Below, piece after piece: positions 1,407-53,065 of a DNA stretch of 64,000 nt (positions are counted from its first letter, which is position 1; each line of letters opens with the position of its first letter). The DNA comes from Eubacteriales bacterium. GTDB taxonomy: Bacteria > Bacillota > Clostridia > Oscillospirales > CAG-272. The stretch is taken from assembly GCA_041655935.1 (NCBI GenBank), contig JBBAEK010000003.1, forward strand, positions 45,030-109,029, read 5' to 3'. The notes below the pieces were generated by a model. It saw only the letters and a list, made by a program, of their open reading frames with translations. It searched no databases and was not told where the DNA came from. The translations under genes were made by a program, and so were the position numbers.

Positions 1407-1469
1407 ACTGTCTCCTTCTCGACATACCTCCCCCTGCCCACGGACAGGGGGAGGCGTTTTGTATTTTTC

Positions 1470-3761: not shown

Positions 3762-3804
3762 TCAAATACTCACTAACTTTCAAATAATAGGGGTGGGAGG
3801 TCCC

Positions 3805-4509
3805 TCAAAAAGACAAAATCCATTTCAGGGGGTCAAACTGGTACACATAGCGCGCTATGTAGGTTTTGGTGATGTCGAAGTCGGCAAGAAAGGCGATGTC
3901 GGAGCCGCCGGCAAGACCGATGCCGAACACAAGCAGCTTGCAGGCGATCCAGGCAAACACGGCGTAAAAAGCCAGGCCAAAGACGGCACCGAGTATTTTG
4001 TTGACCTGCTTGAGTCCGGGAAGCTGAAAGAGCTTGTCAATGATGAAGCCCAGGATGCGAATGACAATCAAGCCGACAAAATACAGCGCAATGAATGCCG
4101 CCACAATGGCGAGTGCCCGCGCGATGGGGTCGGTGGCGGCGTCCAGAAAGGTGTCAATGGCATTTTGCCCGGACGAGAGCGCCTCATCCGCCATGGCGTT
4201 CAGTTCGGCGCCAAATAGCCCTGCCAAACCCTTGATGACGGTGGGGACCTGCCCGACCAGCTCCTCGGAGGTGTTGATGCCGACGCTCTCCCCGATGTAG
4301 TCCCGCAGCAGTCCCTTGAGCGGCTCGGCAATCAGATACTGAAAGCGCTCGCCCAGCGGTTTCGCCAAAAAGAAGGCGCAGACCAGCGATGCCACCCGTC
4401 TCAAATGATGAAAAACAAGTTTAATAAAACCGCGTCTGATGCCGATCAGCAAGCCAAACACGACAAAGGCGACCATTAAGACATCCAGCACTAATTGAGA
4501 CCAAATCAT
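3805..4509 (-). CDS. cvpA: CvpA-family integral membrane protein
   Basis: Multi-pass hydrophobic protein (MIWSQLVLDVLMVAFVVFGLLIGIRRGF...), typical CvpA N-terminus. Start re-picked to ATG 4509, with AGAGGTG RBS 5 nt upstream. Confidence 0.6.
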   Translation of the reverse strand: MIWSQLVLDVLMVAFVVFGLLIGIRRGFIKLVFHHLRRVASLVCAFFLAKPLGERFQYLIAEPLKGLLRDYIGESVGINTSEELVGQVPTVIKGLAGLFGAELNAMADEALSSGQNAIDTFLDAATDPIARALAIVAAFIALYFVGLIVIRILGFIIDKLFQLPGLKQVNKILGAVFGLAFYAVFAWIACKLLVFGIGLAGGSDIAFLADFDITKTYIARYVYQFDPLKWILSF

Positions 4510-4568
4510 ACCGCACCTCTTTCTCACGAATTGTGTGTTCAAACGGGCAAATACGGTCTTCCGATTGT

Positions 4569-4597
4569 ATTATACAACAGATTTTGGGGGCTGTCAA
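4569..4597 (-). promoter_or_regulatory. Consensus sigma-A promoter driving cvpA and the ClpE-like gene
   Basis: Minus strand: TTGACA (4592-4597), exact 17-nt spacer, TATAAT (4569-4574). Confidence 0.6.
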
Positions 4598-4608
4598 CCG
4601 AGCGGCAC

Positions 4609-5406
4609 TTAATAATTGTAGAGAATTTTCCCGCGTGCCATCGCCATGGTGTGCACCTCTCCGACCAGCAGCAAATGGCGGCCGAAAAAGGCCAGGCAAA
4701 GGGGGCGCGCCTCTGGGACGACGACCCTCGCCAGCTGTCCCTGGCTGCGGGTATCCACCCAGACCGTCTCGGTGAACGCCGCCCCCTCGAGCACCGCCCT
4801 GCCCGTCACCGCCAAGGTGCGGCCTTCGGAGGAGAGGGCAAGATGGGTGAGCGGGGTGTCGGTTTGGTAACTCATCGTCAGCCTGCCCGACCGTCCGTAC
4901 ACCTGTACGGCTGAGGCATGCGTGGGGTCGTCGGTGAGGACGGCACACGCGCCCGTGTCGGCGGCGCAAAGGGCATACACCGCCCCCTCTGTCTCTACAT
5001 GCCGGACGAGCCGGCGGCGACTGTACACCGAAAAGGCAGGCGTCCCTGTCTCATACAGGTAAAAATAATCTCCCGACAGGACAAGATGGGCTTGGTGGTA
5101 GGGGGTGTCAAAGGTTGCCTCCGGCTCACCGCTGCTACCGTACAGGGTGAGTTGGCCTGCGTCAAAAGAAAGGGTGAGACTGCCAAAGGGCAGCGTAAAA
5201 GTCGCACCCTCGGCATGGGTTTGCCCCTGCTCTGCGAGCAGACGCGTCCGCATGTTTTCATAGAAGCGCGGGCGGTACCACCGCACCCCTGCCAAAACCG
5301 TCCGCGGCAGGGCGTACAGCACGCAACAGAGCAGCAGGCAAATAGACAGCCCGCGGCATGCCGCTTTTGTGAAGGCGGCTATTTTGCTTCGTGTCGACTC
5401 TCCCAT
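4609..5406 (-). CDS. Hypothetical membrane-anchored protein (one N-terminal TM helix, beta-rich ectodomain)
   Basis: N-terminal hydrophobic segment GLSICLLLCCVLYALP, then repeated beta-strand-like blocks. No motif I recognise. Start chosen at the second ATG (5406) for RBS spacing. Confidence 0.5.
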   Translation of the reverse strand: MGESTRSKIAAFTKAACRGLSICLLLCCVLYALPRTVLAGVRWYRPRFYENMRTRLLAEQGQTHAEGATFTLPFGSLTLSFDAGQLTLYGSSGEPEATFDTPYHQAHLVLSGDYFYLYETGTPAFSVYSRRRLVRHVETEGAVYALCAADTGACAVLTDDPTHASAVQVYGRSGRLTMSYQTDTPLTHLALSSEGRTLAVTGRAVLEGAAFTETVWVDTRSQGQLARVVVPEARPLCLAFFGRHLLLVGEVHTMAMARGKILYNY

Positions 5407-5419
5407 GACGGTCATCTCC

Positions 5420-8400
5420 TCATTGCAGTGCCACCGCCGCCTCCCCCAGCAACTCTTTCAGGGCGGCCAGTAAATCGGCGGTCGGCCGGATCATGTACCC
5501 TGCCGCCAGCGAATACCTGTGCGTCAGGCTGTCAAAGAAGACCACCGGCACCCTGCCCGGATGCCCCGACAGCAACTGCAGCGTTTGCTGACAGAGGGGG
5601 GAGGTCAGGGAGGGCAGCTTGAGATAGAGCTTCTGCTCGCCTGCCCTCTCCTGCGGGGCGGAGGCGGTGGAGACGGGGGCAACGGCGGGGTGGTTGCCGT
5701 CTACCCGCCCGCGCGGGGCGGGCGAAGCCGCCGGTTTTGTTCCCGTGACGGCGTTGGTGAGCAGCGGCAGTACCCGGCTCACCATCACCTTCACCTTTTC
5801 GCCCTCCCGAACCGAGAGGTTTCCCTCCACGCACAGGGCGGCGTCCACTTCCAGCAGCGGGGCGTAGCGGTCATACTGCGCGGGGAAAACAATGAGCTCG
5901 ATGTCGCCGCTTTTGTCCATCAGGGTCAAAAACGCCATTACCCCCCCTTTTTTGGTGTGTTTGACCGACTTGGCGGTAATCATGCCGCAGAGGGTGACGG
6001 CCTGTCGGTCGGCATACTCGTCCAGCGCCTCCCCGGTTTCCTCATGGAAAGCGGCAGTCAGAGTAGCAATTCTGTCATGGGGGATGGTGTCAAGGTGCCG
6101 GCTGTAGCTGTCCAGTAGGTGCCCCGAGAAGTACATGCCGGTGGCCTCCTTCTCAAAGGTCAACAGCTCCTTGACGGTGTATTCGGGGATTTGCGGATAC
6201 TCGATGGTCGGCAAGTGCGCCGCTGCCGTCTCCTCAGTGCTGAAAAAGTCCATCTGCCCCGTCAGGTTGGCGCGCGCACGGGCCTGGGCGTCGGCGATGA
6301 CCCGCTCGTACACCGCCATCAGACGGCTCCGGTACACCCCCAGGCTGTCAAAGGCACCGCACTTGATGAGTGCCTCAATCTGCCGCTTGTTCAGGTCGGT
6401 TTTTGCCATACGCTCCACAAAATCCTCAAAGCCGGCAAAGGGGCGATGGGTGCGCTCGGCGATCATCGCCTCGATGAACTGCCGTCCCACGTTTTTGACG
6501 GCAAGCAGGCTGAAGCGAATCCCGCCGTCTGCCACCGAAAAGTGCAGCCCGCTTTGGTTGACATCGGGCGGCAGCAGTTTCACGCCGAACTTGCCCAGGT
6601 CGGCGGTCTGCTGACTGGACAGCAATGCCGCGACATACTGGGCGGGGTAATGGCACTTCATGTAGGCGGTGCGGTAGGCAATCATGGCATAGGCGGTGGA
6701 GTGGCTCTTGTTGAAGGCATACTTCGCAAAACCCGCCATATCGTCAAAGATGCGGCCCGCGCTCTCCCGGTCAATGCCGCCCGCGACAGCCCCCTCAATG
6801 AATGCCCCCCGCTCCGCCTCCATGGCCTCTGCTTTCTTTTTGGACATGGCGCGGCGCACCAGGTCGGCCCGGGCATAGGAATAGCCCGCCAGCCGCCTGA
6901 AAATCTGCATGACCTGCTCCTGGTAGACAATGCAGCCGTAGGTATTGCTTAAAATATCCTCTAAGGCGGGGGTCGCATACACAATGGGTTCCGCCCCGGT
7001 TTTGCGGGCGATGAAGGTATGGATGGACTCCATCGGTCCCGGTCGGTACAGGGCAATGCAGGCGATGATGTCCTCTAATCTGCTGGGTTTTAACTGCTGT
7101 AATACCTGCTTCATGCCGGCAGACTCAAGCTGAAACACGCCGTCGGTGTCGGCTGCGGACAGCAGTCCATAGGTATCGGGGTCGGTGAAAGGGACCTTGG
7201 AGAGCAGAAAATCCGGCTCCCGCTCACGCACCGACCGTTCCGCCTCGGCCAGCACGGTCAGGTAGCGCAGTCCCAAAAAGTCGAACTTGACCAGCCCTAA
7301 ATCGGCAATGGTGTTCATGTCATAGGCGGTGACGCGCAGCCCGTTGTTCACCGACAGGGGGACATACTCCCACAGCGGGCGCTCGGTGATGAGCAGGCCG
7401 GCGGCGTGGGTGGAGGCGTGGCGAGGCATGCCCTCAAGGGCGGCGGCGACATCGATGAGCTCCTTGATGTCGTCCGAGCTGTCATACAGAGCCCGGAACC
7501 CCTTGTCCTGCAATGCGTCGGCAATGGTGATGCCGAGGACACCCGGGACGGCCTTTGCCACCCGGTCCACCTGCGCGTAGGGCATGCCCAGCGCGCGTCC
7601 GACATCCCGCACGGCGGCCTTGGCCGCCATGGTACCGAAAGTGATGATCTGGGCGACATGCTCCTCCCCGTACTTCTCGCGCACGTACTCCATCACCCTG
7701 TCGCGCTGTTCGTAACAAAAATCGATGTCAAAGTCGGGCAGAGAGATGCGCTCGGGGTTGAGAAAGCGTTCAAACAGCAACTCATACGCCAGGGAGTCCA
7801 CGTCGGTGATGGACAGGCAGTAGGCGACCAGACTGCCCGCCCCCGAGCCTCGTCCCGGGCCGACGGCGATGCCGTTTCGTTTGGCAAACCGCACAAAGTC
7901 CTGCACAATGAGAAAATACTCGTTAAATCCCATTTGGTCAATGACCGACAGCTCATGGCGCAGGCGTTCTATGTAGGCGGACCTGGGGTGTTTGCCGTCA
8001 AAGGTGATGTGCCCCTCCCGCACTTTCTCCTCAAAGCCCGTCATGGTATAGTCGATGAGTGTCTGCGCATGGGTTTTGCCCTTTTCGGGGGGGAAGGTGG
8101 GCAGGTAGAAGGTGCCGAAAGTGAAGGAGAACTGACAGCGATCGGCGATTTTGACGGTATTGGCCAGCGCGTCCTTGTCCGCGCCGAACAGTGCCGCCAT
8201 CTCCGCGGTGCTTTTCAGGTAGTACTCGTCGGTTTCAAAGCCGATGGGGCGACCGTCGGTGATGACATTGTTGGTCTGAATACACATCAGGATGGCTTGG
8301 GTGCGGGCATCCTCTTTTTTCAGGTAGTGCACGTCGTTGGTGGCCACCAGCGGGATGCCGGTCTGCGCCGCAATCATGCGGATGCCGCCGCAGACACGGT

Positions 8401-8959
8401 CATCGTCCGCCATCTTGTGGTGCTGCAGTTCCAGATAAAAGCGGTCACGCCCGAACAGCTCGGAGAGCTGTTTGGCGTAGCGAACAGCCTCCTGCATGTC
8501 CCCCGCCAAAATCATGGACGGGATATAGCCTGCCATGCACGCCGACAGCGCAATGAGTCCCTCGTGGTACTCCGTGAGCAACTCGAGGTCAATGCGGGGC
8601 TTGCTGTAAAACCCCTCAATATAGCCGAGCGAGACCAGCTTGCACAGGTTTTTGTAGCCCGTCTCGTTTTCAACCAGCAACACCAGGTGATACCCGGCGG
8701 CGTCCGCGCGCCCTTCCTTCAGATGGCGGGAGCGGGGCGCGACATAGACCTCACAACCGATGATGGGCTTGACCCCCGCCTCCGTGCAGGCACGCCAAAA
8801 AGCCACCGCCCCATACAGGGAACCGTGGTCGGTGAGGGCGACAGCGCTTTGTCCCGCCGCTTTGACCGCCGCCGCTATGTCTCTCAGGCGGCAGGCGCCG
8901 TCCAGCAGGCTGTACTCGCTGTGTAGGTGCAGGTGGACGAATGCTTGGTTGTTGTTCAT
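5420..8959 (-). CDS. dnaE: DNA polymerase III alpha subunit, DnaE type
   Basis: PHP domain start FVHLHLHSEYSLLDG, polymerase core, OB fold and C-terminal tail; 1179 aa. Confidence 0.95.
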   Translation of the reverse strand: MNNNQAFVHLHLHSEYSLLDGACRLRDIAAAVKAAGQSAVALTDHGSLYGAVAFWRACTEAGVKPIIGCEVYVAPRSRHLKEGRADAAGYHLVLLVENETGYKNLCKLVSLGYIEGFYSKPRIDLELLTEYHEGLIALSACMAGYIPSMILAGDMQEAVRYAKQLSELFGRDRFYLELQHHKMADDDRVCGGIRMIAAQTGIPLVATNDVHYLKKEDARTQAILMCIQTNNVITDGRPIGFETDEYYLKSTAEMAALFGADKDALANTVKIADRCQFSFTFGTFYLPTFPPEKGKTHAQTLIDYTMTGFEEKVREGHITFDGKHPRSAYIERLRHELSVIDQMGFNEYFLIVQDFVRFAKRNGIAVGPGRGSGAGSLVAYCLSITDVDSLAYELLFERFLNPERISLPDFDIDFCYEQRDRVMEYVREKYGEEHVAQIITFGTMAAKAAVRDVGRALGMPYAQVDRVAKAVPGVLGITIADALQDKGFRALYDSSDDIKELIDVAAALEGMPRHASTHAAGLLITERPLWEYVPLSVNNGLRVTAYDMNTIADLGLVKFDFLGLRYLTVLAEAERSVREREPDFLLSKVPFTDPDTYGLLSAADTDGVFQLESAGMKQVLQQLKPSRLEDIIACIALYRPGPMESIHTFIARKTGAEPIVYATPALEDILSNTYGCIVYQEQVMQIFRRLAGYSYARADLVRRAMSKKKAEAMEAERGAFIEGAVAGGIDRESAGRIFDDMAGFAKYAFNKSHSTAYAMIAYRTAYMKCHYPAQYVAALLSSQQTADLGKFGVKLLPPDVNQSGLHFSVADGGIRFSLLAVKNVGRQFIEAMIAERTHRPFAGFEDFVERMAKTDLNKRQIEALIKCGAFDSLGVYRSRLMAVYERVIADAQARARANLTGQMDFFSTEETAAAHLPTIEYPQIPEYTVKELLTFEKEATGMYFSGHLLDSYSRHLDTIPHDRIATLTAAFHEETGEALDEYADRQAVTLCGMITAKSVKHTKKGGVMAFLTLMDKSGDIELIVFPAQYDRYAPLLEVDAALCVEGNLSVREGEKVKVMVSRVLPLLTNAVTGTKPAASPAPRGRVDGNHPAVAPVSTASAPQERAGEQKLYLKLPSLTSPLCQQTLQLLSGHPGRVPVVFFDSLTHRYSLAAGYMIRPTADLLAALKELLGEAAVALQ

Positions 8960-8960
8960 C

Positions 8961-9878
8961 TTACTTTTCTTCGCTCAGCAATTGGTGGGCTTGTTTCATG
9001 ATTTTATACAGGCGGTGGTTAAGCCCCGACTTGGTGAGGGAGGGGGTCATGAGCGCCGCCAGTTGCCCCAGCGACAGGTCCCGGTGCTGCAGGCGCAGCA
9101 GGGCGGTCTCCTTTAACTCGGGGGGCAGGAGAGACAGTTTATGCTCGGCAATCAGCCGCTCAATGACCTCAATCTGCTTCATGGAGGCGGACACGGCGCG
9201 GGTGATGTTGTTGGTCTCGCAGTTGGTGACCCGGTTGGCATTGTTACGGAACTCCCGTTCAATCTTGGCATCCATCAGGCCAAATGCCGCCTGGTTCAGC
9301 CCCACCAGCACAAAAAAATCCTCCAAAGACCCGCTGTCCTTGAAATAGAGCAACTGTTCGCCCCGCCGGGTGATGCGTTTGGGAAACAGGCGGCAACTGT
9401 GCAAAAAGGCTTCGATGGCAAGCAGCCTGTCCCCGCAGGAAAACTCCAAATGGTAGGTGAGGGCTGGGTCGGAGACCCGCCCGCACGCCAAAAAAACGCC
9501 TTGCAAAAATGCGCCCTTGCAGCCGTTGCAATGCGCGGTGTCGGGCAGGGTTTGCCCGAGGGCTTCTATGTACCGCCGGGCGGAAGGAGCGGACAAGGTG
9601 AGGGTGTAGGCGGCACGGCCCTGCCCGGAACGCACCAGGGTAGGCTCGGTGCCATACAGGTCCCGCACCAGTGCGCGGACAAACTCCGCCTGCGTAGTGC
9701 CTGACAGAGGCAACCGCACCCCCTCATCGGTGCTTGTCCCCCGCGCCAGCAACATGCCGTGGAGCAACGAGCGTTTACAGCACTTGGACTTCCACTCTCT
9801 TTGGCAGAGGCTGTTTTTGATGGTTTGTGTGAACGAGATGGAGACTCCCTCCTTTGCCGTGTCCTTGATGTGCGACAA
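8961..9878 (-). CDS. whiA: DNA-binding protein WhiA
   Basis: Degenerate LAGLIDADG-like core plus C-terminal HTH (NRVTNCETNNITRAVSASMKQIEVIERL...SLGQLAALMTPSLTKSGLNHRL). TTG start at 9878 with a weak RBS. Confidence 0.88.
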   Translation of the reverse strand: MSHIKDTAKEGVSISFTQTIKNSLCQREWKSKCCKRSLLHGMLLARGTSTDEGVRLPLSGTTQAEFVRALVRDLYGTEPTLVRSGQGRAAYTLTLSAPSARRYIEALGQTLPDTAHCNGCKGAFLQGVFLACGRVSDPALTYHLEFSCGDRLLAIEAFLHSCRLFPKRITRRGEQLLYFKDSGSLEDFFVLVGLNQAAFGLMDAKIEREFRNNANRVTNCETNNITRAVSASMKQIEVIERLIAEHKLSLLPPELKETALLRLQHRDLSLGQLAALMTPSLTKSGLNHRLYKIMKQAHQLLSEEK

Positions 9879-43811: not shown

Positions 43812-43840
43812 TTGACAAAGAAATGCGCTTGTATTATAAT
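43812..43840 (+). promoter_or_regulatory. Perfect consensus sigma-A promoter of the tRNA-Gly/tRNA-Arg pair
   Basis: TTGACA (43812-43817), 17 nt, TATAAT (43835-43840). Confidence 0.65.
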
Positions 43841-43918: not shown

Positions 43919-43992
<74 letters not shown>

Positions 43993-44003: not shown

Positions 44004-44079
44004 GCGCCCTTAGCTCAGTGGATAGAGTTCCCGGCTACGAACCGGTAGGTCGCAAGTTCGAATCCTGCAGGGCGCGCCA
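44004..44079 (+). tRNA. tRNA-Arg (anticodon ACG), CCA encoded
   Basis: Acceptor GCGCCCT/AGGGCGC. Anticodon loop CTACGAA. T loop TTCGAAT. Confidence 0.9.
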
Positions 44080-44088
44080 TAAAAGAAA

Positions 44089-44122
44089 CGTCTTTTGTCT
44101 ACCAAGACAAGAGGCGTTTTTT
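44089..44122 (+). terminator. Rho-independent terminator of the tRNA pair
   Basis: 12-bp stem 44089-44100 / 44105-44116 (two G-T pairs), then TTTTTT. Confidence 0.6.
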
Positions 44123-44173
44123 CTTGCTTTTCAGGGCAAATATGCGAAAAATCGGGCAAAAATAAGGGAAAAT

Positions 44174-44216
44174 GGGCTTCGGAACGGTCGATCGGCTGTT
44201 CCGGAGCCCGTTTTTT
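44174..44216 (+). terminator. Second, orphan rho-independent terminator (no upstream ORF)
   Basis: 12-bp stem GGGCTTCGGAAC (44174-44185) / GTTCCGGAGCCC (44198-44209), then GTTTTTT. Confidence 0.5.
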
Positions 44217-44258
44217 GTTTGCAGCAGGCAGAAAACGCGGCAAAAATGCTGGTACACT

Positions 44259-44294
44259 TTTGGGTAGTCTTTACGCCTGCAAAGACTACCCAAA
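44259..44294. repeat. Perfect 14-bp inverted repeat with 8-bp spacer at the left island border
   Basis: TTTGGGTAGTCTTT-ACGCCTGC-AAAGACTACCCAAA, read directly. Confidence 0.9.
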
Positions 44295-44402
44295 GAAGTT
44301 GCCCCACTCGGATTTGAACCTTCCTCCGAAGAAAATTTACAAAGAAAAATTCAGAAGTAACGAAAAAGTGTATGCTAACCCCTTCCATTTTTCGACGATA
44401 TG

Positions 44403-44411
44403 TGCTATACT
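44403..44411 (+). promoter_or_regulatory. Extended -10 promoter element upstream of the WYL regulator operon
   Basis: TGCTATACT (44403-44411), 35 nt before ATG 44446 (GGAGG RBS 44436-44440). The -35 is poor (TTCCAT). Confidence 0.4.
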
Positions 44412-44445
44412 ATAAGGTGAATATTTGTAGTTTACGGAGGCGGCC

Positions 44446-45474
44446 ATGGGAAATGAAAGCTCACAAAAAATAAAATTACTTAAACTCATGGAGATGCTAC
44501 GCCGCGAGACCGATGAACAACATCCGATGCGCCGCAAAGAAATATGCGAACGTCTGGAAGCGATGGGTATCAGCTGCGACATCCGCACGTTGTCAAAAGA
44601 CATGAAGGCACTCAACGATTATGGCTTCGAGGTAATGAGTTATTTCGTTGACCACGAAAAATGCTACTATGTGCCGGAAGATAATTTCTCGGATGCAGAG
44701 CTCAAGATTTTGATCGACGCAATTCAGGCAGCGAGCTTCATAACCGATAAGAAAACGGCGGAACTCATCGATAAGGTCGCGGCGCTTGGCGGCAGCCACA
44801 AAGCAGAGCTGCTGAAGGACAATATGGTTTGCTTCAACACGCGGAAGCACCACAACGAAATGATCTATTACGCGGTCGATCGCATTGAAACAGCGATAAA
44901 GGCGAACAAGAAGATCATCTTCTATTATTATGATCTGGATGAGAACGGACAGAAGCACTATCGCCGCGATAAGCACCACTATCAAGCAGAGCCGGTTGCG
45001 TTGGTATTTCACGAAGACAACTACTACCTCGTTTCGTATTTTCCGCAAAAGGATTGCACCGTGAATTATCGGCTTGATCGCATGGAACAGGTCGAAGTCA
45101 AGGACGAGGACATTTCGGATAAAGCAAAAGAACTGCGCAGCAGCATTGCCGGATACACAGAATCGGCGTTCAAAATGTACGGCGGGGATCCACTCGACGT
45201 GACGCTGCAGTTCGAGGACAAATTGATAGGTGTCGTCTACGATAAATTCGGCGAGGACACAAAGATGCTTCGCATCAACGATACGACGATCATCGCGGCC
45301 GTGAAGGTACAGGTCAGTCCGACGTTCTGGGGCTGGATGTTCCAGTTCGGCGGAAAGATGACGATCAACTCGCCGGATGAACTGAAAGAGGAATACAAGA
45401 AGCAGGTAGAGGCTTTGCTTTTCAAAGGAGACAATTTAGTTCCGTTTTACAATAATGAAAGGACAAAAGAATGA
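44446..45474 (+). CDS. wHTH-WYL-WCX transcriptional regulator (BrxR/CapW-like architecture)
   Basis: N-terminal HTH (KEICERLEAMGISCDIRTLSKDMKALNDYGF). WYL core (IIFYYYDLDENG...AEPVALVFHEDNYYLVSYF...NYRLDRM). C-terminal extension domain of about 100 aa. Confidence 0.8.
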   Translation: MGNESSQKIKLLKLMEMLRRETDEQHPMRRKEICERLEAMGISCDIRTLSKDMKALNDYGFEVMSYFVDHEKCYYVPEDNFSDAELKILIDAIQAASFITDKKTAELIDKVAALGGSHKAELLKDNMVCFNTRKHHNEMIYYAVDRIETAIKANKKIIFYYYDLDENGQKHYRRDKHHYQAEPVALVFHEDNYYLVSYFPQKDCTVNYRLDRMEQVEVKDEDISDKAKELRSSIAGYTESAFKMYGGDPLDVTLQFEDKLIGVVYDKFGEDTKMLRINDTTIIAAVKVQVSPTFWGWMFQFGGKMTINSPDELKEEYKKQVEALLFKGDNLVPFYNNERTKE

Positions 45475-46928
45475 AAACGATGCAAAAAAGTATTACGACA
45501 GAAAAAGAGAATGGTCGTTTTTACACACCAATCTTTATTGTTGATAATATTCTTGATTTGGCTGGGTATTATGGTGCGAAAATACTAAAAAAGCACGTGA
45601 TTGATAATAGCTGTGGCGATGGAGCATTTTTGACTCAAATTGTTCGTAGATATTGCACAGAAGCAATTAGTCAAGGGTATAGTATTGATGATTTAAGATC
45701 AGATTTGGCAACATATATACACGGAATAGAATTAGAAATAGTTGAGCAGAAAAAATGCATAGAAAACATTAGTCGCGTAGCGGAACAGTTCGATGTATTT
45801 GAGGTTGAATGGAATATTCTTTGTGGAGACGCATTAGCGATAAAAAGTTTTGATGGGAAAATGGATTATGTTTTAGGTAATCCGCCGTATGTTCGTGTGC
45901 ATAATTTGGGAGACTCGTTCGATGAAATAAAGAAGTTTTCTTTTGCACAGAACGGGATGACAGATCTTTTTATCGTGTTTTATGAGCTTGGGATCAAAAT
46001 GCTGAACGAAACCGGAACGCTCGGATATATTACCCCGAGTTCATACTTCAATAGTATTGCGGGTGCATACATGCGGAAGTATTTGGCGCAAGAAAAGCTT
46101 CTCACGACGGTTGTTGATTTGAGACACTTTCAAGCATTTGATGCCACTACGTACACTGCAATTACAATACTAAAAAAAGGTGAAGAAAATCAAAGCGTAG
46201 ATTATTACCGTTTTGACGAAAAGAACAGGGTTCCGTATTATGTGGAAACTGTAGAGCCAGACGATTATCAAATAGCCGGTAATTATTATTTTGCAAAGAA
46301 AGAGGAATTGCATCTTCTACACAAAATTCTTTTCAACTTGGGGAAAAGTGACGTAGCGGTTAAGAACGGATATGCAACGCTTTGTGATGGCGTTTTTATT
46401 AACGAATTCGATTTTCAATCAAAATATATTATTCCCGTGATAAAGTCTTCAAAAGGGGTAGAGCAGAGGATTTTCTATCCGTATGATCATAAGGGAAATT
46501 TAATTTTGGAAGACGAGTTACAAAAAGATGAAAAACTGTATCGTTATCTTGTGGATAACAAAGCTCAATTAACTAAGCGTAGTAATGAAAAAGATGCAGC
46601 AGTTTACTGGTATGCATTTGGACGTAGCCAAGCAATTAGTGATACATACAAAAACAAACTGGCAATTAATTCTTTGCTTCGTTCAAAAGAGGACTTTAAG
46701 TTTACGGAGGCACCGCCCGGAACGGGAGTCTATGGTGGATTGTATATTGTAAGCGATACCATTAACATGAAAGAAATTATTGCGGTGTTGAAAACGGATG
46801 AGTTTATATCATATATAGAGTTATTAGGAAAATATAAAAGTGGTGGTTATTATACTTTTTCATCAAAAGACGTAAAAGCATATCTTGATTACAAATTTTC
46901 ATACGACGGAGGAATATTTTCATGTTAA
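45471..46928 (+). CDS. Gamma-class N6-adenine DNA methyltransferase (Eco57I/TaqI-like catalytic domain + C-terminal target-recognition domain)
   Basis: Motif X GRFYTP, motif [13 protein letters not shown], motif [11 protein letters not shown], then about 250 aa of TRD. ATGA start/stop overlap with the WYL gene. Confidence 0.85.
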
Positions 46929-47653
46929 ACAATCAACAATTTTTGGAAGTAGTAAGGGAGTCATTTAAGACTTATCTGAGTGTAGACACATCAAGAAGCA
47001 CAGCAAAACTCAAAAGCTTACACGGGCATATAGCAAGGGATATAAAGGAGCTCTTTGGTCCCGAATATACAGTGCTGGCACAAGGAATTGGAAACGATAA
47101 AGAAGGAAGCATCCAAGGAAGGTATTACCCTAAAAATGTTGACATAACGGTGAGCAAGCGCGGAAAACCGGTTGCGGGTTATGCTGTAAAGTTTGTCATG
47201 AGAAATTATTCTCAAAATAGCAACAACTATTTTGAAAACATGCTTGGGGAGACTGCGAATATTAGGTCGAATTCGATCCCGTATTTTCAGATTTTTATTA
47301 TTTTCGAGCAAGTGCCATATTATAAAAACGGTGGCGCTTTTCAGAAATACGATGTGTTGACCGAACATAATTTGGATAAGTATTTTGCGCTTTCAAAAGA
47401 CGATCCGGCTTCGTATTTTCACACGCCGGATAAAACGCTTATTGTCATACTGCATTTGAAAGAAAAAAGTCCAGCATACAGCTTTATTGATTCCAAAGAT
47501 TATGCAGATTATTACAATAGCGTAATAAACGATACTGATTTAATGCGTTACTCGACAAAAATTCGTGATACATTTGATGACAGCGTTGTTCTGAATGATT
47601 ATGAAAAGTTTATTAAAAAAACATATTTTATAGCAGAGGGTAAAACAAAATAA
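46922..47653 (+). CDS. Uncharacterised 243-aa protein, positional candidate for the cognate restriction endonuclease
   Basis: ATG overlaps the methyltransferase stop (ATGTTAA). Only a weak PD-(D/E)xK-like trace (NVDITV-x11-YAVKF, followed by ENMLGE). No family recognised by eye. Confidence 0.4.
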
Positions 47654-47664
47654 GACATAACATA

Positions 47665-47699
47665 AAAATGCCTCGCACCAGAACGGTACGAGGCATTTT
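47665..47699. terminator. Bidirectional terminator between the operon (+) and the SLOG gene (-)
   Basis: 11-bp perfect stem AAAATGCCTCG (47665-47675) / CGAGGCATTTT (47689-47699). Confidence 0.6.
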
Positions 47700-47708
47700 G
47701 CGTTACAG

Positions 47709-48215
47709 TTAGAATTTGAGGACATGGCGCACGGCGACACCGTGCTTCTCGGCGTACACGATCGTATTGCGCGTTCCGCCAGATTCGCCATTATATGCAG
47801 CGATCACACGAGCGGAGTGATCGACCATCCACTCGTTGCGGATTTGGAAGCAGGCACGGCTGTAAGACGGGCAGATGTACCGGACGAGATCCGCAGCGGC
47901 AAGGATGTTGTTATAACGGCGCTGCCAATCCGGCGACCATGAACGCTCGAATCCTTCATACGGGCTTGCGCAGATCAGGTGGAGAGGGCGGCCAGCCGCT
48001 TTCAGCTCGAGCACAATTTCCGCTGCCCAGATGTCAACGCCTCGAGCCATGCCGGTGATGAAAGTAATAAAGCCATCATCGGCGGCAACAATGATCTCAC
48101 GACGCAGCGCGGCGATCACTTCTTTTTCGGGAACATTCAGTTTTTCGGGACGATGCCCGGTAAAGCAGCAACGATGCTGCAGGAGTTCGGCTTCTGATGC
48201 AGGCACAGCGAACAC
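47709..48215 (-). CDS. SLOG-superfamily DUF1273 (YpsA/YoqJ-like) protein
   Basis: Diagnostic CFTGHRPEKL N-terminal motif, GMARGVDIWAAE, GGTRNT near the C-terminus. GTG start at 48215 or 48206. Confidence 0.7.
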   Translation of the reverse strand: MFAVPASEAELLQHRCCFTGHRPEKLNVPEKEVIAALRREIIVAADDGFITFITGMARGVDIWAAEIVLELKAAGRPLHLICASPYEGFERSWSPDWQRRYNNILAAADLVRYICPSYSRACFQIRNEWMVDHSARVIAAYNGESGGTRNTIVYAEKHGVAVRHVLKF

Positions 48216-48324
48216 CTCCTGTCAAGATAATAATCGTGTTCTATAACGGCGCGGAATACACCCGCGCATACTCGAACGGGCAGCCCGGAAACAAGCCCGG
48301 TTGGAACAAGAAGGAGGAAGCATA

Positions 48325-49962
48325 ATGGCAACGGCAACAACGGCAAGACGAATCGTGCGTGAGATCCCGCGTATCAACCTCTTCGATACGACAGCGACGC
48401 AGACACAAAGACGGTTGCTTCAGGTAGCAGCATACGCGCGAGTATCGACCGAAAAGGAAGAACAGGAAGACAATTTCGAGCGGCAGGTTGAGCACTACAC
48501 GCAGATGATCGCCAGCAACAAAGACTGGGAGAAGGTTGACATCTATGCAGACCCCGGCATCAGCGGCACGAGAGCAGAAAAACGACCGAACTTCATGCGC
48601 ATGATAAACGACTGCCGCGCGGGCAAGATCGAAAAGGTGCTCGTCAAGAGCATCAGCCGATTCGCCAGAAATACGGTCGACGCGCTGCAGTACATACGCG
48701 AACTCAAAGACCTCGGCATCAGCGTGTACTTCGAGAGTGAGAACATCGATACACTGACGCCCGGCGGCGAGGTGCTCATCACGATCCTTGCAGCGATGGC
48801 CGAGCAGGAATCGCGGACGATCAGTACGAACATCAAGTGGGCATGGCAGCGGAAATTCCAGAACGGCGAAATCATCCTGAACACCGGACTGATGCTCGGA
48901 TATAAGAAAAACGGAAAAGACGAAAACTGTCTGACGGTCTACGTAATCGACGAGGCGGAGGCCGAGATCGTGCGGCGAATATACAGAGAGTTCATCGAAG
49001 GGATAACGGTGACGCGAATCTGCAAAAGACTCGAGGCGGACGGAATCCTTACGCCGCTCGGGAAAACGCACTGGCAGCACAACGTGGTCGAAAGCATCCT
49101 GACAAACGAAAAATACACGGGCAACGCCATCCTCGGAAAGACATATAAACCGGATGTCCTGACAAAACACCGGAAGAAGAATGACGGCGAAAAAGCACCG
49201 ATGTACTACGTAGAAAATACGCATCCGGCGATCATCGACAAAGAGATGTTCGAGATGGCGCAGGCGGAAATGAAGAACCGGCGTGAAGCAGGAACGAGGG
49301 CTGTCGGAAACAGCCGCTTCACCAGCAAGTACCCGTTCAGCGGGCTGCTGGTATGCGGTGAGTGCGGAGCAATGTTACGCAGACAGGTACGCACGATGGG
49401 TACCGGCGAACGGGTAGCAAGCTGGGGCTGCAGTTACAGAATCGTGAACGGGCGAGCGGCATGCGACAGTCACCATGTGCGTGAGGACGTCATGGAAAAG
49501 ACCTACGCAGCCGCGATCAAGCAGATGGCGGACAACGCAGCAGAGGTCATCGAGGCAGTGCGGGAAGGGACGCAGCTGGCGATGCAGCCGGACAATGCAG
49601 AGGAGCGCGAGGTGGTCGAACAGGAAATCATCGAGCTGCAGGAGACGGCGCTCACACTCCACAAGAACAAGCAAAGCGGACTCATCGCGGCAGAGGCATA
49701 CGATACGGAGATCCGCGCATGCAGCGAGCGAATGAAAGAGCTCGAAGCGCGGCAGGCCGAGATGAAAACGGCAGCAACCAGATACGCCGAAGTCAAGACA
49801 TGGATCGACGCCTTCGAGCAGGGACTGCAGGACGGCAGCATAGCGGAAACGGACGACGCCGGATTGATGAAGACACTGGTAGAACGCATCACCGTGAACA
49901 GCGACGGAATCGAGGTCGAGTTCAAATGCGGAGCCCGCGTGCAGCAGAAATATGTCAGATAA
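48325..49962 (+). CDS. Large serine recombinase (resolvase catalytic domain + recombinase domain + zinc ribbon + coiled coil)
   Basis: AAYARVSTEKE catalytic Ser, SRFARN, GY..NG...L.IDE.EAEIVRRIY, CGECGAMLRR...WGC zinc motif. ATG 48325 with GAAGGAGGA RBS. Confidence 0.9.
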   Translation: MATATTARRIVREIPRINLFDTTATQTQRRLLQVAAYARVSTEKEEQEDNFERQVEHYTQMIASNKDWEKVDIYADPGISGTRAEKRPNFMRMINDCRAGKIEKVLVKSISRFARNTVDALQYIRELKDLGISVYFESENIDTLTPGGEVLITILAAMAEQESRTISTNIKWAWQRKFQNGEIILNTGLMLGYKKNGKDENCLTVYVIDEAEAEIVRRIYREFIEGITVTRICKRLEADGILTPLGKTHWQHNVVESILTNEKYTGNAILGKTYKPDVLTKHRKKNDGEKAPMYYVENTHPAIIDKEMFEMAQAEMKNRREAGTRAVGNSRFTSKYPFSGLLVCGECGAMLRRQVRTMGTGERVASWGCSYRIVNGRAACDSHHVREDVMEKTYAAAIKQMADNAAEVIEAVREGTQLAMQPDNAEEREVVEQEIIELQETALTLHKNKQSGLIAAEAYDTEIRACSERMKELEARQAEMKTAATRYAEVKTWIDAFEQGLQDGSIAETDDAGLMKTLVERITVNSDGIEVEFKCGARVQQKYVR

Positions 49963-49966
49963 GAGG

Positions 49967-50010
49967 AAGCCCTCGGCAACCGGCAGCAGTCGGAAGCCGA
50001 GGGCTTTTTT
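49967..50010 (+). terminator. Rho-independent terminator after the recombinase gene
   Basis: Stem AAGCCCTCGG (49967-49976) / CCGAGGGCTT (49997-50006), then TTTTTT. Confidence 0.65.
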
Positions 50011-50034
50011 GCGTCCCGTGCAGGCGGTTTTCAG

Positions 50035-50085
50035 ATGTATCTTTTGGGTAGTCTTACCTCCGAAATGTATCTTTTGGGTAGTCTT
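50035..50085 (+). repeat. Two perfect 21-nt direct repeats (30-nt period) at the right island border
   Basis: ATGTATCTTTTGGGTAGTCTT at 50035-50055 and 50065-50085. They share CTTTTGGGTAGTCTT with 44257-44271. Confidence 0.9.
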
Positions 50086-50090
50086 TGACA

Positions 50091-50128
50091 AGAAAAAGCA
50101 GAGGTTTGTTTAACAACAAATCTCTGCT
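50091..50128 (-). terminator. Rho-independent terminator of the DUF1638 gene (host side of the island junction)
   Basis: 14-bp stem 50097-50110 / 50115-50128 (one G-T pair). On the minus strand it is followed by TTTTTC. Confidence 0.55.
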
Positions 50129-50227
50129 TTATTATTGAAATCCACCCTTGCAACCGGGCGAAATCGCTTCACGGTGAAATCCCGCTTCGCGGTGAGAAAG
50201 CCGCCTCGACGGCGGGTGAGCGGGGGG

Positions 50228-50986
50228 TCAGGAGGGATCGGCGGGCGGGCAGGCTTGGCAGGACAGGATATCGGGGCCGTTTGAGGGCCGGATAGTCTCG
50301 CCCGGCGGTACCACCAAAAAGCGGTCCGGATCCCACTGCCCCGCCAGCATATCCGCCAGCAGTCGGGAGCTGCCGGTCAATCGCTCAAACTGCCAGTGCA
50401 GGAAATCGGCACATGCCTCGGTGTACGCCGCCGCGCTCTCAAAGGGCAGCTCTTTCCATTCAATGTATTTGCAGTGTTGGTATCTGGTGAGCCAGCTTTG
50501 TTCTTCTGCCAGAAGATAAGTGGCGTTATCTTCTCCGTATTGCTCGCAATACTCCTTGAAAAGCTGGTCGTATCTTTCCTTTGAGGGCATGGGGGCGTTT
50601 TCCAGCCAGCCCTTTGAGTACCAGTAAATGCCGCCGTGGCAGGCGTCAAAGTAGTCCCGGTAGCGCTCCTTGCTGCCCAAAAGCAGCGTGATGCAGTCGT
50701 GTGCCCTCGGGACAACCAGCGTATGCCGTGCGGAGTGCAACCCCACAATGCCGTTGCTGCATAGCCCGTAGCCCAGCAGAATGGCGTCGAAGTACATCTC
50801 CTTGCTATGGGTGTCGCACTCTGCATCAATGGCGTCAATTTCCGCCTGCAGCAACTCGCGCAAACGCGCGGGGGTGTTGTGAAACCCCTGTCTTAGGTAG
50901 GTGATGTCAATGAAGTTGTCACTTTGGGCGCACAGATGCGAGCATTCCCTTTGCAGGACCTTGCAGGCGAGTAATTTATAATTCAT
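50228..50986 (-). CDS. DUF1638 domain protein
   Basis: MNYKLLACKVLQRE...ILLGYGLC.NG.VGL...VVPRAHDCITLLLGS pattern typical of DUF1638. ATG 50986. Confidence 0.65.
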   Translation of the reverse strand: MNYKLLACKVLQRECSHLCAQSDNFIDITYLRQGFHNTPARLRELLQAEIDAIDAECDTHSKEMYFDAILLGYGLCSNGIVGLHSARHTLVVPRAHDCITLLLGSKERYRDYFDACHGGIYWYSKGWLENAPMPSKERYDQLFKEYCEQYGEDNATYLLAEEQSWLTRYQHCKYIEWKELPFESAAAYTEACADFLHWQFERLTGSSRLLADMLAGQWDPDRFLVVPPGETIRPSNGPDILSCQACPPADPS

Positions 50987-51107
50987 AGAGGACCTCAAGG
51001 ACAGGCGCACTGCGGACAGTGTAAAAAAACCTGTTCTTTTTGTTTGTTTTATGCTATACTAAGGTAACAAGCGGTGTCGGGAAAAGGACGAAAGCGAGGT
51101 GGGGTGA

Positions 51108-52367
51108 TTGAATACGCCAAACGAAGCAAAAAGGCTAACCCAGACCATTCACGAGCAGATGGAGTACTTTTCGATGGCCACAGGGATCCCCTGTTGCAGC
51201 ATCCCTCAGGACGAGACGGGGTACCGGGCGCGGCAGAACTGCCGGTTCTGCCAAACAGTCTGTGAGCTTGCCGGGCAATCGGTGGCGTGTCAGCGGACGC
51301 TGCGTTACGCCGCCTACCAAGCCGAGCGCTTTGGCGGCAAATATATTTTTTACTGTCCGATGGGACTGGTGCATTTCGCCTCTCCCGTCTATACCGACGG
51401 CGCGATTGTGGCACTGGCCATCGGCGGACCTGTGCTGCTCATTGACCGTGAGGAGTACCTCTCCGAAGATGTGATGCAAAAGTACCGGCTGGACGAAGCA
51501 CACAAAGAACGCCTGCGCGCGGAGATGAGCCACATACCGGAACTGTCCCCCGAGCGGGTGACCGCCCTGTCAGAGATGCTCTTTTCGGTGTGCGCCTTCA
51601 TCAGCGGTGCGGCGCAACTGCAGTACATCGGTGATGAGGAAACGGTGGGGCGCGATATGGAAAAGTATCTCGACTACATCAACACCATGGGCAGTGACAA
51701 CGCCGCCCCCTCCTACCCGATCGAAAAGGAACGGGAGCTCCTCGCACTCATTGCCTTAGGCGAAAAGGAAGAATCCATCCGGATCCTGGACGAGATTTTG
51801 CGCCACATTATCAACAGCTCCAACAAGGATTTTGAACGGGTGAAAGCAAGGATTTTGGAGCTGGTCGTGCTGCTGTCCCGGGCGGCGCTGGAGGGTGGGG
51901 CGGATCTGGAGCAGATTTTCGGTCTGAACTACAAATTTCTCGACCAGATCAACCACTACCAGACGGTGGAAGGACTGGCAAGCTGGCTGTCGGGCATCAT
52001 GGTCCGTTTCACCGACTGTGTCTTTACCATCAAAAATGTCAAGCACATGGATACCATCTACAAGGCGGTGGACTATATCAAGCGCCACTACCGCGAAAAA
52101 ATCACGCTGGAGGATGTCGCCAAGGCGGTCTACCTGAGCCCCGCTTACTTTTCCAAAGTGTTCAAAGAGGGCATGAGCGTCAGCTTCAGCCAATACCTCA
52201 ACCAAGTCCGGATTGAAAACAGCAAACGATACCTCATGAACAAGGAGCTGGACATGATTCAAATCGCGGAGATGCTGGGGTTTGAGGACCAGAGCTATTT
52301 TTCCAAAGTTTTCAAGAAAATCACGGGGGTCACCCCGAGCAGGTACCGTCAGCGGCACAGAGGGTAG
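51108..52367 (+). CDS. AraC-family transcriptional regulator with N-terminal PocR sensory domain
   Basis: PocR-like Cys-rich sensor (CRFCQ...C.LAGQSVAC...YIFYCPMGLVHFASPV). C-terminal double HTH (YLSPAYFSKVFK...GFEDQSYFSKVFKK). TTG start with GAGGTGGGG RBS. Confidence 0.85.
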   Translation: MNTPNEAKRLTQTIHEQMEYFSMATGIPCCSIPQDETGYRARQNCRFCQTVCELAGQSVACQRTLRYAAYQAERFGGKYIFYCPMGLVHFASPVYTDGAIVALAIGGPVLLIDREEYLSEDVMQKYRLDEAHKERLRAEMSHIPELSPERVTALSEMLFSVCAFISGAAQLQYIGDEETVGRDMEKYLDYINTMGSDNAAPSYPIEKERELLALIALGEKEESIRILDEILRHIINSSNKDFERVKARILELVVLLSRAALEGGADLEQIFGLNYKFLDQINHYQTVEGLASWLSGIMVRFTDCVFTIKNVKHMDTIYKAVDYIKRHYREKITLEDVAKAVYLSPAYFSKVFKEGMSVSFSQYLNQVRIENSKRYLMNKELDMIQIAEMLGFEDQSYFSKVFKKITGVTPSRYRQRHRG

Positions 52368-52375
52368 GTCCGTGC

Positions 52376-53008
52376 TTACAGGCTTTCCAAGAAGCCCTTG
52401 AGCCGGGACGCCAGCAGGGCGTGCCCCTTGCTGTTGGGGTGCAGGCCGTCCGGCATGTACTGCTTCCGGTTAGTGGGCACATTGGGCTGCATTCCGCTGG
52501 TGCGGTACAGGTCCAGCACGGGAATGGCGTACGCCTCCGCCACCTCCTTGATGATGTCTGCATAGGCGGAGAGGGGGAGATTGTTGCCCTTGCTCGGCTT
52601 GTGGTCATCCAGCCGATGCAGGGGGGTCATGAAGACAATGGTGGCAAGAGGGTACTTGACCATGAGGCCCTCCATGAGCAGGTGCAGCGCGCCGTAAAAG
52701 GTGCACTCAGTGCGGTCCTCAAAGCTGCCGATGGGGGCGTCTCCGTGCCCGTAGTCATTGGTGCCGCCAAAGACCACCACCACATCTGCCTGCTCGTCCA
52801 TCCCCTTGTAGCGGTCAACAAAGGGAAACCCCAGGTCGAGAGGGCTGTTTTGCCGAGCGATGCGGGAGCCGCTCACCCCGTAATTGCGCGCCTCTTTTAA
52901 GTGCAGCTCGCGCTTGAGGCAGCTGACATACGAGCGGGCGGGCAGTGCCCCGAAACCAAAGGTGATGCTGTCGCCTAAAAAGTTGATCGAAAGTCCTTCG
53001 CAGTTCAT
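52376..53008 (-). CDS. SGNH/GDSL-family hydrolase
   Basis: Block I FLGDSIT, block III GGTND, block V DGLHPN. ATG 53008 with AGGAGGGG RBS. Confidence 0.8.
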   Translation of the reverse strand: MNCEGLSINFLGDSITFGFGALPARSYVSCLKRELHLKEARNYGVSGSRIARQNSPLDLGFPFVDRYKGMDEQADVVVVFGGTNDYGHGDAPIGSFEDRTECTFYGALHLLMEGLMVKYPLATIVFMTPLHRLDDHKPSKGNNLPLSAYADIIKEVAEAYAIPVLDLYRTSGMQPNVPTNRKQYMPDGLHPNSKGHALLASRLKGFLESL

Positions 53009-53065
53009 ATTCCCCTCCTGAAAAGCAGACGCAGCCATAGGATGTGTCTGCTTTTGGTTTGCTTT

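Follow-up and report, generated by a model that had tools for sequence, protein, structure and literature searches.

A 6-kb restriction-modification island at the CCA end of a tRNA-Arg gene and the repeated motif of its attachment sites

A window of 64 kb from a Eubacteriales bacterium (assembly GCA_041655935.1, contig JBBAEK010000003.1, positions 45,030 to 109,029; coordinates below are those of this window) contains a 6-kb mobile island with a restriction-modification (R-M) system, integrated at the CCA end of a tRNA-Arg(ACG) gene by exchange at the dinucleotide CA. The integrated element covers 44080..50088 on the plus strand, that is, the 6009 bp between the two CA dinucleotides. From left to right it consists of the hairpin of the left attachment site (attL), a second terminator, a large palindrome, the genes for a WYL regulator, a methyltransferase, a probable endonuclease, a YpsA/SLOG protein (minus strand) and a large serine recombinase, and two direct repeats, DR1 and DR2. 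The island is of an ordinary kind, and what is new is its conserved compound attachment (att) site.

Junctions of the island and its insertion site

The junctions were set with contigs of public metagenome runs containing near-identical DNA, mapped on the region, of which X1 and X4 are from landfill. In X4, a 151-nt contig covers 44041-44077 and passes from there directly to 50089-50134, as in an empty site. The same joint of 44077 to 50089 was detected in X1 at 7x, in a run where the island itself is present at 20x. The joint skips 6011 nt, and in both runs 2 nt (CA) can be assigned to either side. As 44077 is joined to 50089 in the empty-site contigs, the element corresponds to 44080-50088 and the crossover dinucleotide is found on the plus strand at 44078..44079 in attL, where it constitutes the final two bases of CCA, and at 50089..50090 in attR. 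This CA is the only sequence common to attL and attR. The empty-site contigs define attB, without demonstrating ongoing excision.

The tRNA-Arg(ACG) gene (44004..44079, plus strand, detected by ARAGORN) encodes its CCA, provides with its 3' end the B arm of the attachment site, as read from the empty-site contigs, and is intact after the insertion. It adjoins tRNA-Gly(TCC) (43919..43992, plus strand; ARAGORN, Rfam tRNA 72 bits), which heads the tRNA operon behind a consensus promoter at 43812-43840 (12/12 in the promoter scan). Among related elements, a left-end relative begins CCA|TAAAAGAAACG, and the contigs of L019 and L002 break off at the tRNA end.

These data support the mobile island adjoining tRNA-Gly and tRNA-Arg that had been proposed in a preliminary description of the sequence, but change its limits. 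The island had been regarded as bracketed by copies of a repeated motif, whereas its left junction at 44078/79, in the tRNA-Arg CCA, is 180 bp to the left of the palindrome and all four motif copies are internal. In the same way, a 15-nt motif had been taken for a shared attL/attR core unlike that of the textbook, and yet the junctions share just CA, which is the textbook 2-bp picture. The proposed search for an empty site yielded the site and its exact junctions, together with a left junction unrelated to the palindrome, an outcome named in advance as contrary to the proposal. The possibility that the motif was a pre-existing host repeat is excluded, because the empty site has none of the motif copies. 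As for the terminators that had been placed just outside the island, the one at 44170-44213 is inside the element and kept in related elements, whereas the hairpin at 50091-50130 is indeed the native terminator of the tRNA.

The attB sequence reads ...GAATCCTGCAGGGCGCGC-CA-AGAAAAAGCAGAGGTTTGTTTAACAA... and the reconstructed attP reads ...ATGTATCTTTTGGGTAGTCTTACCTCCGAAATGTATCTTTTGGGTAGTCTTTGA-CA-TAAAAGAAACGTCTTTTGTCTACCAAGAC..., with the inverted repeat TCTTT-GACATA-AAAGA as attP core. The P' arm is a terminator hairpin (44083..44122, plus strand, loop TTTTGTCTACCAA, terminator scan) that starts with AAAGA, the mirror of the TCTTT of the P arm, and replaces the native terminator of the tRNA, so that the element itself supplies the tRNA with a terminator. 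The B' arm is the native hairpin (50091..50130, plus strand), an inverted repeat into which the empty-site contig runs. Both arms are alike, as 10 of 12 bases of the B' loop TTTGTTTAACAA are equal to those of the P' loop TTTGTCTACCAA in the same register. An AAAGA hairpin start is the normal terminator A-tract, as seen in L167, and in the nearest relative of the host (75% identical in leucyl-tRNA synthetase, LeuRS) the native terminator has the form tRNA-Arg-CCA-AA-AAAGAAC-hairpin. All related elements begin on the left with a hairpin of the P' type, whose stem varies among them in a compensatory manner.

Two further terminators complete this region. The second intrinsic terminator (44170..44213, plus strand; 20 pairs in the terminator scan) is borne by the element and kept in the WYL-type relatives, according to the left-end alignment, and the hairpin that terminates the recombinase gene (49967..50006, plus strand) is also kept in relatives. 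Once the element is circular, DR1 and DR2 would be confined, with the core, the palindrome and two terminators, to ~260 bp between the recombinase and WYL genes. An Rfam search of the noncoding parts of the island gave no match. In run X1, contigs with a depth of 28 connect 50008 with 44092 and lead from 50009 back to 49969 (window 49966-50010); these joints are probably due to other elements of the sample that share the recombinase-gene terminator, or to assembly effects at the hairpin.

The repeated motif and its probable binder

The recombinase gene (48325..49962, plus strand) encodes 545 aa with the Pfam domains Resolvase (PF00239, 7e-38, residues 34-182), Recombinase (PF07508, 3e-25, residues 210-319) and Zn_ribbon_recom (PF13408, 3e-13, residues 337-398) and is, as previously described, the only recombinase, located at the right end of the island. 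These domains identify the protein as a bona fide large serine recombinase and not a Ccr, given that the NCBIfam scores were 147 bits for CcrB (cut-off 900), 142 for CcrC (900) and 65 for CcrA (700), the XisF-like match being also below its cut-off. Matches in the PDB were 3G13 and the SPbeta integrase, and also TP901-1 integrase structures. The nearest relatives, with 71% identity (L163-L166), are prophage integrases adjoining lysis genes, which were discarded as guides to the att layout because their att region differs; the closest deposited phage integrase is 41% identical.

The motif CTTTTGGGTAGTCTT is present at 44257, 50041 and 50071, always on the plus strand. On the left side, 180 bp inside attL, it forms with a reverse copy the perfect palindrome TTTGGGTAGTCTTT-N8-AAAGACTACCCAAA (14-N8-14, 44259..44294), which can be viewed as two inverted P-type half-sites. 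On the right side it lies within two perfect 21-nt repeats. By its position, DR2 (50065-50085) constitutes with the following TGA the P arm of attR (50065..50088, plus strand), with 3 nt between the end of the motif and the crossover, and DR1 (50035..50055, plus strand), a second copy 30 nt upstream that is followed by ACCT, would be an extra tandem P-type half-site with an accessory role. The three plus-strand sites, the perfect palindrome and the two perfect repeats 30 nt apart had all been noted before and are borne out by the sequence. A 13-mer of the motif has four copies, none of its occurrences in the window being elsewhere, and is the most repeated 13-mer there; the chance expectation is ~0.1 (15-mer with up to 2 mismatches in 64 kb). 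DR2 spans roughly positions 5-25 of the left half-site, and the palindrome, TCTTT-ACGCCTGC-AAAGA with N8, looks like the attP core, TCTTT-GACATA-AAAGA with N6.

The DR block (50033-50090) showed one variant across four gut metagenomes, against many in the adjoining ~90 nt (49934-50025). In these metagenomes the depth of the block was above that of the recombinase gene, and the block adjoined differing upstream DNA. Neither the palindrome nor the DR pair was found by exact pattern in genome contigs or viral contigs, and a looser palindrome pattern retrieved from metagenome contigs unrelated terminator hairpins only.

A second complete element, L007, allowed the comparison of matched sites. It has 8864 bp (616-9479), and its recombinase, 63% identical, is the sole protein shared with the window element. 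It is located within an amidase (endolysin-like) gene instead of a tRNA gene, and its removal keeping one CA restores an open reading frame (ORF) of 251 aa, so L007 uses a secondary site. Its ends are CA|hairpin on one side and DR1-31 nt-DR2-AGA|CA on the other, and the palindrome of L007, TTTTTGTAAGTCTTT-N7-AAAGACTTA, agrees with its repeats CTTTTCGTAAGTCT and CTTTTCGTAAGTTTT. The L007 motif is unlike that of the window, yet it is altered in parallel at all three sites. The same repeats adjoin a CA-hairpin in L006, a phage fragment with a recombinase 88% identical to that of L007. In two others, L021 and L022, there is a match between the palindrome arms and the P' stem of the same element. 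From the parallel change in L007 and L006 and the match of arms and stem in L021 and L022, the palindrome can be read as an att core copied symmetrically around a longer centre. The cargo of L007 comprises a TetR regulator, an NADH:flavin oxidoreductase-like gene and two short-chain dehydrogenases.

Our preferred reading, to which we give somewhat better than even chances, is that the motif TTTGGGTAGTCTT is a P-type half-site of the recombinase, with DR2 as the working P arm and DR1 and the palindrome as accessory sites. The assignment of the motif to the recombinase is made with moderate confidence, because the position of DR2 requires binding by the recombinase, because this is the sole protein common to the window element and L007, because the DR block appears constrained and because WYL tracks the motif poorly. 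Among the three explanations put forward in the preliminary description, half-sites or accessory sites of the recombinase would be the best fit.

According to this proposal, DR2 would act as the working P arm beside the crossover, and DR1, three helical turns from DR2, would be an accessory recombinase site. The palindrome would be another accessory site, a symmetric copy of the attP core that is probably not cleavable owing to a centre of 8 bp and not 6 bp. In the circle, the accessory sites would surround attP (~260 bp) much as in the res site of a resolvase, and, more speculatively, they would control the timing or direction of recombination. As P' is like B', attL would resemble attB and attR would resemble attP, so the usual asymmetry that blocks reversal may be weak; such an attL could permit tandem insertion and weaken the block to reversal, both speculative consequences. 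A tandem array, seen in L106, is as expected if attL mimics attB; X2 and X28 have P-CA-P' joints.

A different explanation is that the motif is an operator of the WYL regulator. The palindrome would be a dimer site before the regulator's own gene, and binding to the DRs would let WYL gate the access of the recombinase, coupling excision to a WYL-sensed signal. The distribution of the sites is consistent with this, as the palindrome, the second terminator and a T-loop-like box are found only in left ends with (or recently with) a WYL gene, whereas hairpin loci before other genes are without them; in L042 and L106, moreover, DR1 is closer to the palindrome than DR2 is. WYL regulators of the BrxR type recognise inverted repeats close to the gene that encodes them, a single half-site being sufficient; these operators consist of repeats of 10-11 bp separated by 5 bp and are placed after the -10 and before the gene (PMC9122601). 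In contrast, the palindrome is 14-N8-14 and its position is ~150 bp upstream of the WYL start codon and ~115 bp upstream of the likely -35, unlike a BrxR operator in geometry and place. Against an operator there is also the fact that the same WYL recognition helix, DIRTLSKD, occurs with three palindrome cores (window, L020 and L026), that L042 and L124 have identical WYL N-termini and different cores, and that the core TGCGTTTCTTT is accompanied by three different recognition helices. Furthermore, DR2 occupies a position that the recombinase has to bind, L007 has no WYL gene and yet retains matched sites, and a better-placed inverted repeat, ACTATAA-N9-TTGTAGT, lies at the likely WYL -10. For these reasons, the operator explanation, also raised in the preliminary description, is disfavoured and we regard it as unlikely.

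That small inverted repeat (44411-44433) includes the 3' edge of TGCTATACT (44403-44411), the likely extended -10 of the WYL gene, and continues downstream, being a better-placed candidate operator for the WYL protein than the large palindrome, as far as its position indicates.

It could also be that DR2, in its place as P arm, is the one functional copy and that DR1 and the palindrome are by-products, either local duplications of att arms or relics of earlier recombination or tandem insertion. It is well established that characterised large serine integrases, such as Bxb1, use minimal sites of ~40-50 bp without accessory DNA; in addition, the right arm of the palindrome is degenerate in several relatives, and the element family is rich in tandem arrays and deletion derivatives. 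However, the tandem DR1-DR2 pair is found with a spacing of 30-31 nt in at least 8 independent P arms, where the first copy is usually followed by ACCT, so that both the spacing and the ACCT tail of DR1 are kept in divergent elements. Similarly, the position and two-fold symmetry of the palindrome are kept while both of its arms change in sequence, the DR block is nearly invariant beside variable DNA and the motif copies of the window are perfect. A by-product origin appears, consequently, quite improbable.

Finally, the palindrome might act as a nucleic-acid structure (a leader RNA hairpin or processing site, or a DNA cruciform) with a secondary likeness to the DRs, given its perfect 14-bp stem and 8-nt loop, its arms that covary across elements and its position between terminator and promoter within a long conserved leader, but this is very improbable, since the inner halves of the arms are unpaired in L020, L149 and L007, no T-run follows, Rfam gave no match for it and the identity with two same-strand copies beside the crossover is left unexplained.

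Some observations weigh against the preferred reading. The assignment draws on position and on covariation in two lineages, and to our knowledge characterised large serine integrases need no accessory sites. The motif stands 1 nt further from the centre in the palindrome (4 nt) than in the P arm (3 nt), a difference in register. In L042, L115, L075 and L022 the P arm adjoining the hairpin does not match the palindrome core, although these may be arms of neighbouring tandem elements. The left end of L149, which has a WYL gene, is nearly that of L007, and L007 is, to judge from this likeness, probably a recent deletion derivative of a WYL-type element; for this reason its lack of WYL weighs little. 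The empty-site contigs derive from related strains (2 mismatches, and an 88-bp difference in X1) and not from the same strain. The joints of X2 and X28 that go back may be tandem junctions and not circles, so that current mobility is no more than possible.

The conserved box GGATTTGAACC (44310..44320), 16 nt past the palindrome and at a fixed distance from it, is the reverse complement of the tRNA T-loop consensus and is present in 15/15 WYL-type left ends. Box-bearing left ends are those of the window, L019-L022, L026, L042, L070, L074, L075, L115, L124, L149 and L007, and the sequence after the box is spaced like the 3' half of a tRNA. The box was rejected as a simple tRNA remnant because the T stem is unpaired, and as a -35 element because no usable -10 exists downstream.

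Relatives of the element

WYL homologues with 54-97% identity head varied cargo, including GmrSD plus type I R-M, a type I shufflon, and type III R-M plus a helicase-nuclease. Their left ends contain the CCA of a tRNA (Val, Leu and others), the hairpin, the second terminator, a palindrome of the same geometry, the box GGATTTGAAC, the promoter and the WYL gene. In a wider scan, the hairpin was found at more than 120 loci, nearly all of them in metagenome-assembled genomes (MAGs) of Oscillospirales; a recognisable tRNA, belonging to 26 anticodon types, precedes 72 of the 136 classified hairpin loci. It is unsafe to consider every tRNA-CCA-hairpin locus an element end, because the hairpin also exists as B' before ordinary genes (L139, L143, L136 and L150). 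At ~15 loci a P arm, instead of a tRNA, precedes the hairpin, at least 8 of them having the tandem pair of half-sites, and the frame GTAC-TTTT.G.....CTTT..CA is common to all P arms.

Evidence for accumulation comes from L106 (491-1420), a tandem array in which a tRNA-Leu is followed by an 805-bp remnant and then by a WYL-type element. The remnant retains the hairpin, the recombinase-gene terminator, a GNAT acetyltransferase gene and DR1-DR2. As read from the sequence of this array, elements of the family stack at one tRNA. P-CA-P' joints were also found in X2 and X28, where contigs go back 6011 nt; these had been considered circular excision products, and were downgraded to circle or tandem since the array of L106 has the same P-CA-P' junction. 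The pairing of P0055 with P0224 was discarded because they lie on different contigs.

As a tentative generalisation, which we consider possible and rather doubtful, a large serine recombinase lineage of uncultured Oscillospirales, and of their phages and defence islands, might use compound att sites made of a duplicated P arm and an uncleavable core mimic in a resolvase-like arrangement. These recombinases would target tRNA CCA ends plus the terminator A-tract, and P' would mimic B', making attL a reusable attB with tandem accretion as the result; recombination would perhaps be reversible without a separate factor and regulated by the accessory sites.

The left end of the island had no match in deposited phages, and the right end of the L021/L024 element was not located. 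A second copy of the WYL promoter region (GCGCCAATCCTATTGAAAA...GTGCTATAAT) follows the recombinase gene of the same element in L024 (11711-11760) and L021 (9909-9955), ahead of a Colicin-DNase/WHH toxin gene. At seven loci (L098, L114, L124, L130, L131, L147 and L158) the hairpin is preceded by only the last ~25 nt of a tRNA, that is, the remainder of the T-loop, the acceptor strand and CCA, the sequence upstream being not tRNA-like and ARAGORN finding no gene.

A different sequence, an identical 44-mer AAAGAAGTAACTTTTGTCTACCAAAAGTTACTTCTTTTTTTATC, was found at 26 loci after many kinds of tRNA in different MAGs, among them L043, L044, L056, L059, L063, L081, L082, L087, L089, L091-L093, L102, L107 and L126. 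Where the sequence downstream was read (L093, L102, L107 and L126), there are short GC-rich hairpins in arrays, with ATATCATC or GATGATAT between them. The 44-mer looks like a separate, widespread small mobile or repeat element.

Cargo, known systems and flanks

The first gene of the cargo (44446..45474, plus strand) encodes a transcriptional regulator of helix-turn-helix (HTH)-WYL-WCX order (Pfam WYL 6e-11, WCX 1.4e-5; PADLOC WYL 5e-26), the architecture of BrxR. It is followed by a type II N6-adenine DNA methyltransferase of the Eco57I-like family (45471..46928, plus strand; Pfam Eco57I 4e-23, N6_Mtase 6e-16), which matches PADLOC MTase_II with 3.7e-139 over 477 of 485 residues and has in its translation the NPPY motif that corresponds to N6-adenine enzymes. 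The start of the next gene, ORF243 (46922..47653, plus strand, 243 aa), overlaps the end of the methyltransferase gene. No family match was obtained for ORF243 with Pfam, NCBIfam and PADLOC profile searches, but the top PDB folds for its AlphaFold model (pLDDT, the confidence score of the model, 75) were AgeI, BstEII, BspD6I, BsaWI and PspGI, all weak matches (E 5e-3, TM 0.31-0.38); from these modelled folds and from its pairing with the same methyltransferase in L247, it is probably the cognate restriction endonuclease. A hairpin terminator (47665..47699) separates ORF243 from the convergent gene of a YpsA/SLOG (DUF1273) protein (47709..48215, minus strand; Pfam YpsA 5e-23). In L022, a YpsA copy with 69% identity is present at the same position, adjoining an unrelated recombinase; YpsA/SLOG accompanies the WYL-type cargo and not the recombinase. 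No candidate gene for a directionality factor is evident in the element, where YpsA/SLOG is the sole small protein without an assigned role.

The GC content is 35.6-35.9% for the methyltransferase and ORF243, 47% for the WYL gene, 56% for the YpsA and recombinase genes and 57-58% for the flanks. Thus, the statement that everything between the repeats is lower in GC holds for the AT-rich methyltransferase and ORF243 genes, with WYL at an intermediate value, but not for the YpsA and recombinase genes, which are like the flanks. L019 matches the window over 44077-45395 at 95% and then has other cargo, and L247 matches 45409-47654 at 85%; on this basis the island is a mosaic. In L247 (1032-3214), the pair formed by the methyltransferase and the 243-aa gene, with 93% protein and 85% DNA identity, is found without WYL, YpsA or recombinase, from which it appears that the R-M cassette moves independently of the island.

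The recombinase shares with the phage-type large serine integrases (phiC31, Bxb1, A118/LI, TP901-1 and SprA of SPbeta) the order Resolvase-Recombinase-Zn ribbon with a C-terminal coiled-coil region, and the same 2-bp crossover in which attL and attR have only that dinucleotide in common. Characterised large serine integrases have simple att sites of ~40-50 bp, without accessory DNA, and depend for excision on a separate directionality factor. Unlike them, the element described here has a tandem-duplicated P arm, a symmetric core-like site 180 bp inside the other end, P' and B' arms that are alike, the CCA end of a tRNA plus the terminator A-tract as target and no evident directionality-factor gene. 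Extra copies of the putative half-site are conserved in the window element and its relatives. A layout with more in common is that of the res sites of Tn3/gamma-delta, Sin and beta, where the crossover is flanked within 100-200 bp by extra, uncut copies that bind additional recombinase and have altered spacing or, in Sin, a direct repeat. The sequence layout of the island would be comparable, with N6 in the core, N8 in the palindrome and a direct repeat at 30 nt, and the res site would be its closest analogue as regards site layout. Nevertheless, res sites belong to resolvases of ~200 aa that act on two res sites in one molecule, whereas this is a large recombinase, and we know of nothing res-like described for large serine integrases.

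From the functional point of view, the closest analogues would be the staphylococcal cassette chromosomes (SCCmec/SCC), on account of a serine recombinase, defence cargo and tandem stacking. There, too, small cassettes enter a conserved gene at its 3' end through a large serine recombinase (Ccr), and CcrB and CcrC are the best NCBIfam models for the window recombinase, far below their cut-offs. The target is rlmH in SCC and a tRNA here, and the end repeats of SCC are shared integration-site sequence, whereas all the repeats of the island are internal. SCC cassettes also bear anti-phage defences and accumulate in tandem (PMC11470126).

Islands that target tRNA genes (tyrosine-integrase islands, satellites and tycheposons) similarly have small cargo at the 3' end of various tRNAs and form tandem arrays, but they duplicate a 3' stretch of the tRNA as direct repeats and nearly all use tyrosine integrases, in contrast to the CA exchange by a serine recombinase, with nothing duplicated, found here. 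With the loci of BrxR/CapW-type WYL regulators, the island shares an HTH-WYL-WCX protein as first gene of an operon whose defence cargo varies among relatives (PMC9122601), the difference being that in the island the module of the regulator is joined to the att module of a recombinase. The WYL protein of the window had no sequence match to solved BrxR structures, its sole match being PafBC (E 4e-4). Neither this att layout nor serine integrases aimed at tRNA CCA ends were found described in the searches made of open-access papers from PubMed Central and bioRxiv.

Large serine integrases are valued for genome engineering and are thought to need two short sites, plus one factor for reversal. If the proposal on the motif is true, a lineage with conserved accessory half-sites and product sites that resemble the substrates would represent another way to control direction, and a source of enzymes that land at tRNA-terminator junctions. 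In the microbiome, small islands of this type would shuttle cassettes for restriction and other defences between Clostridia of gut and landfill, stacking at tRNA genes. If the extra copies are inert, the island would be an ordinary serine-recombinase defence island.

Regarding the flanks, the DUF1638 protein encoded beside the island was searched for and no other context was found. Comparison of 50228-53038 of the window with L170, L171, L177 and L200 revealed that in these relatives LeuRS is directly followed by the genes for a HAD hydrolase, a TIM-barrel protein and an Xaa-Pro peptidase, whereas in the window these genes are separated from LeuRS by the two tRNA genes, the island and the genes of DUF1638, PocR/AraC and GDSL type. 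Judged from this gene order, the LeuRS-HAD interval is a variable hot spot. Just past the native tRNA terminator, 50133-50222 gave a sub-threshold match to Gut-1 RNA (29.8 bits, gathering score 50), and the 88 bp at 50135-50222 are missing from the empty-site contig of X1, a strain indel.

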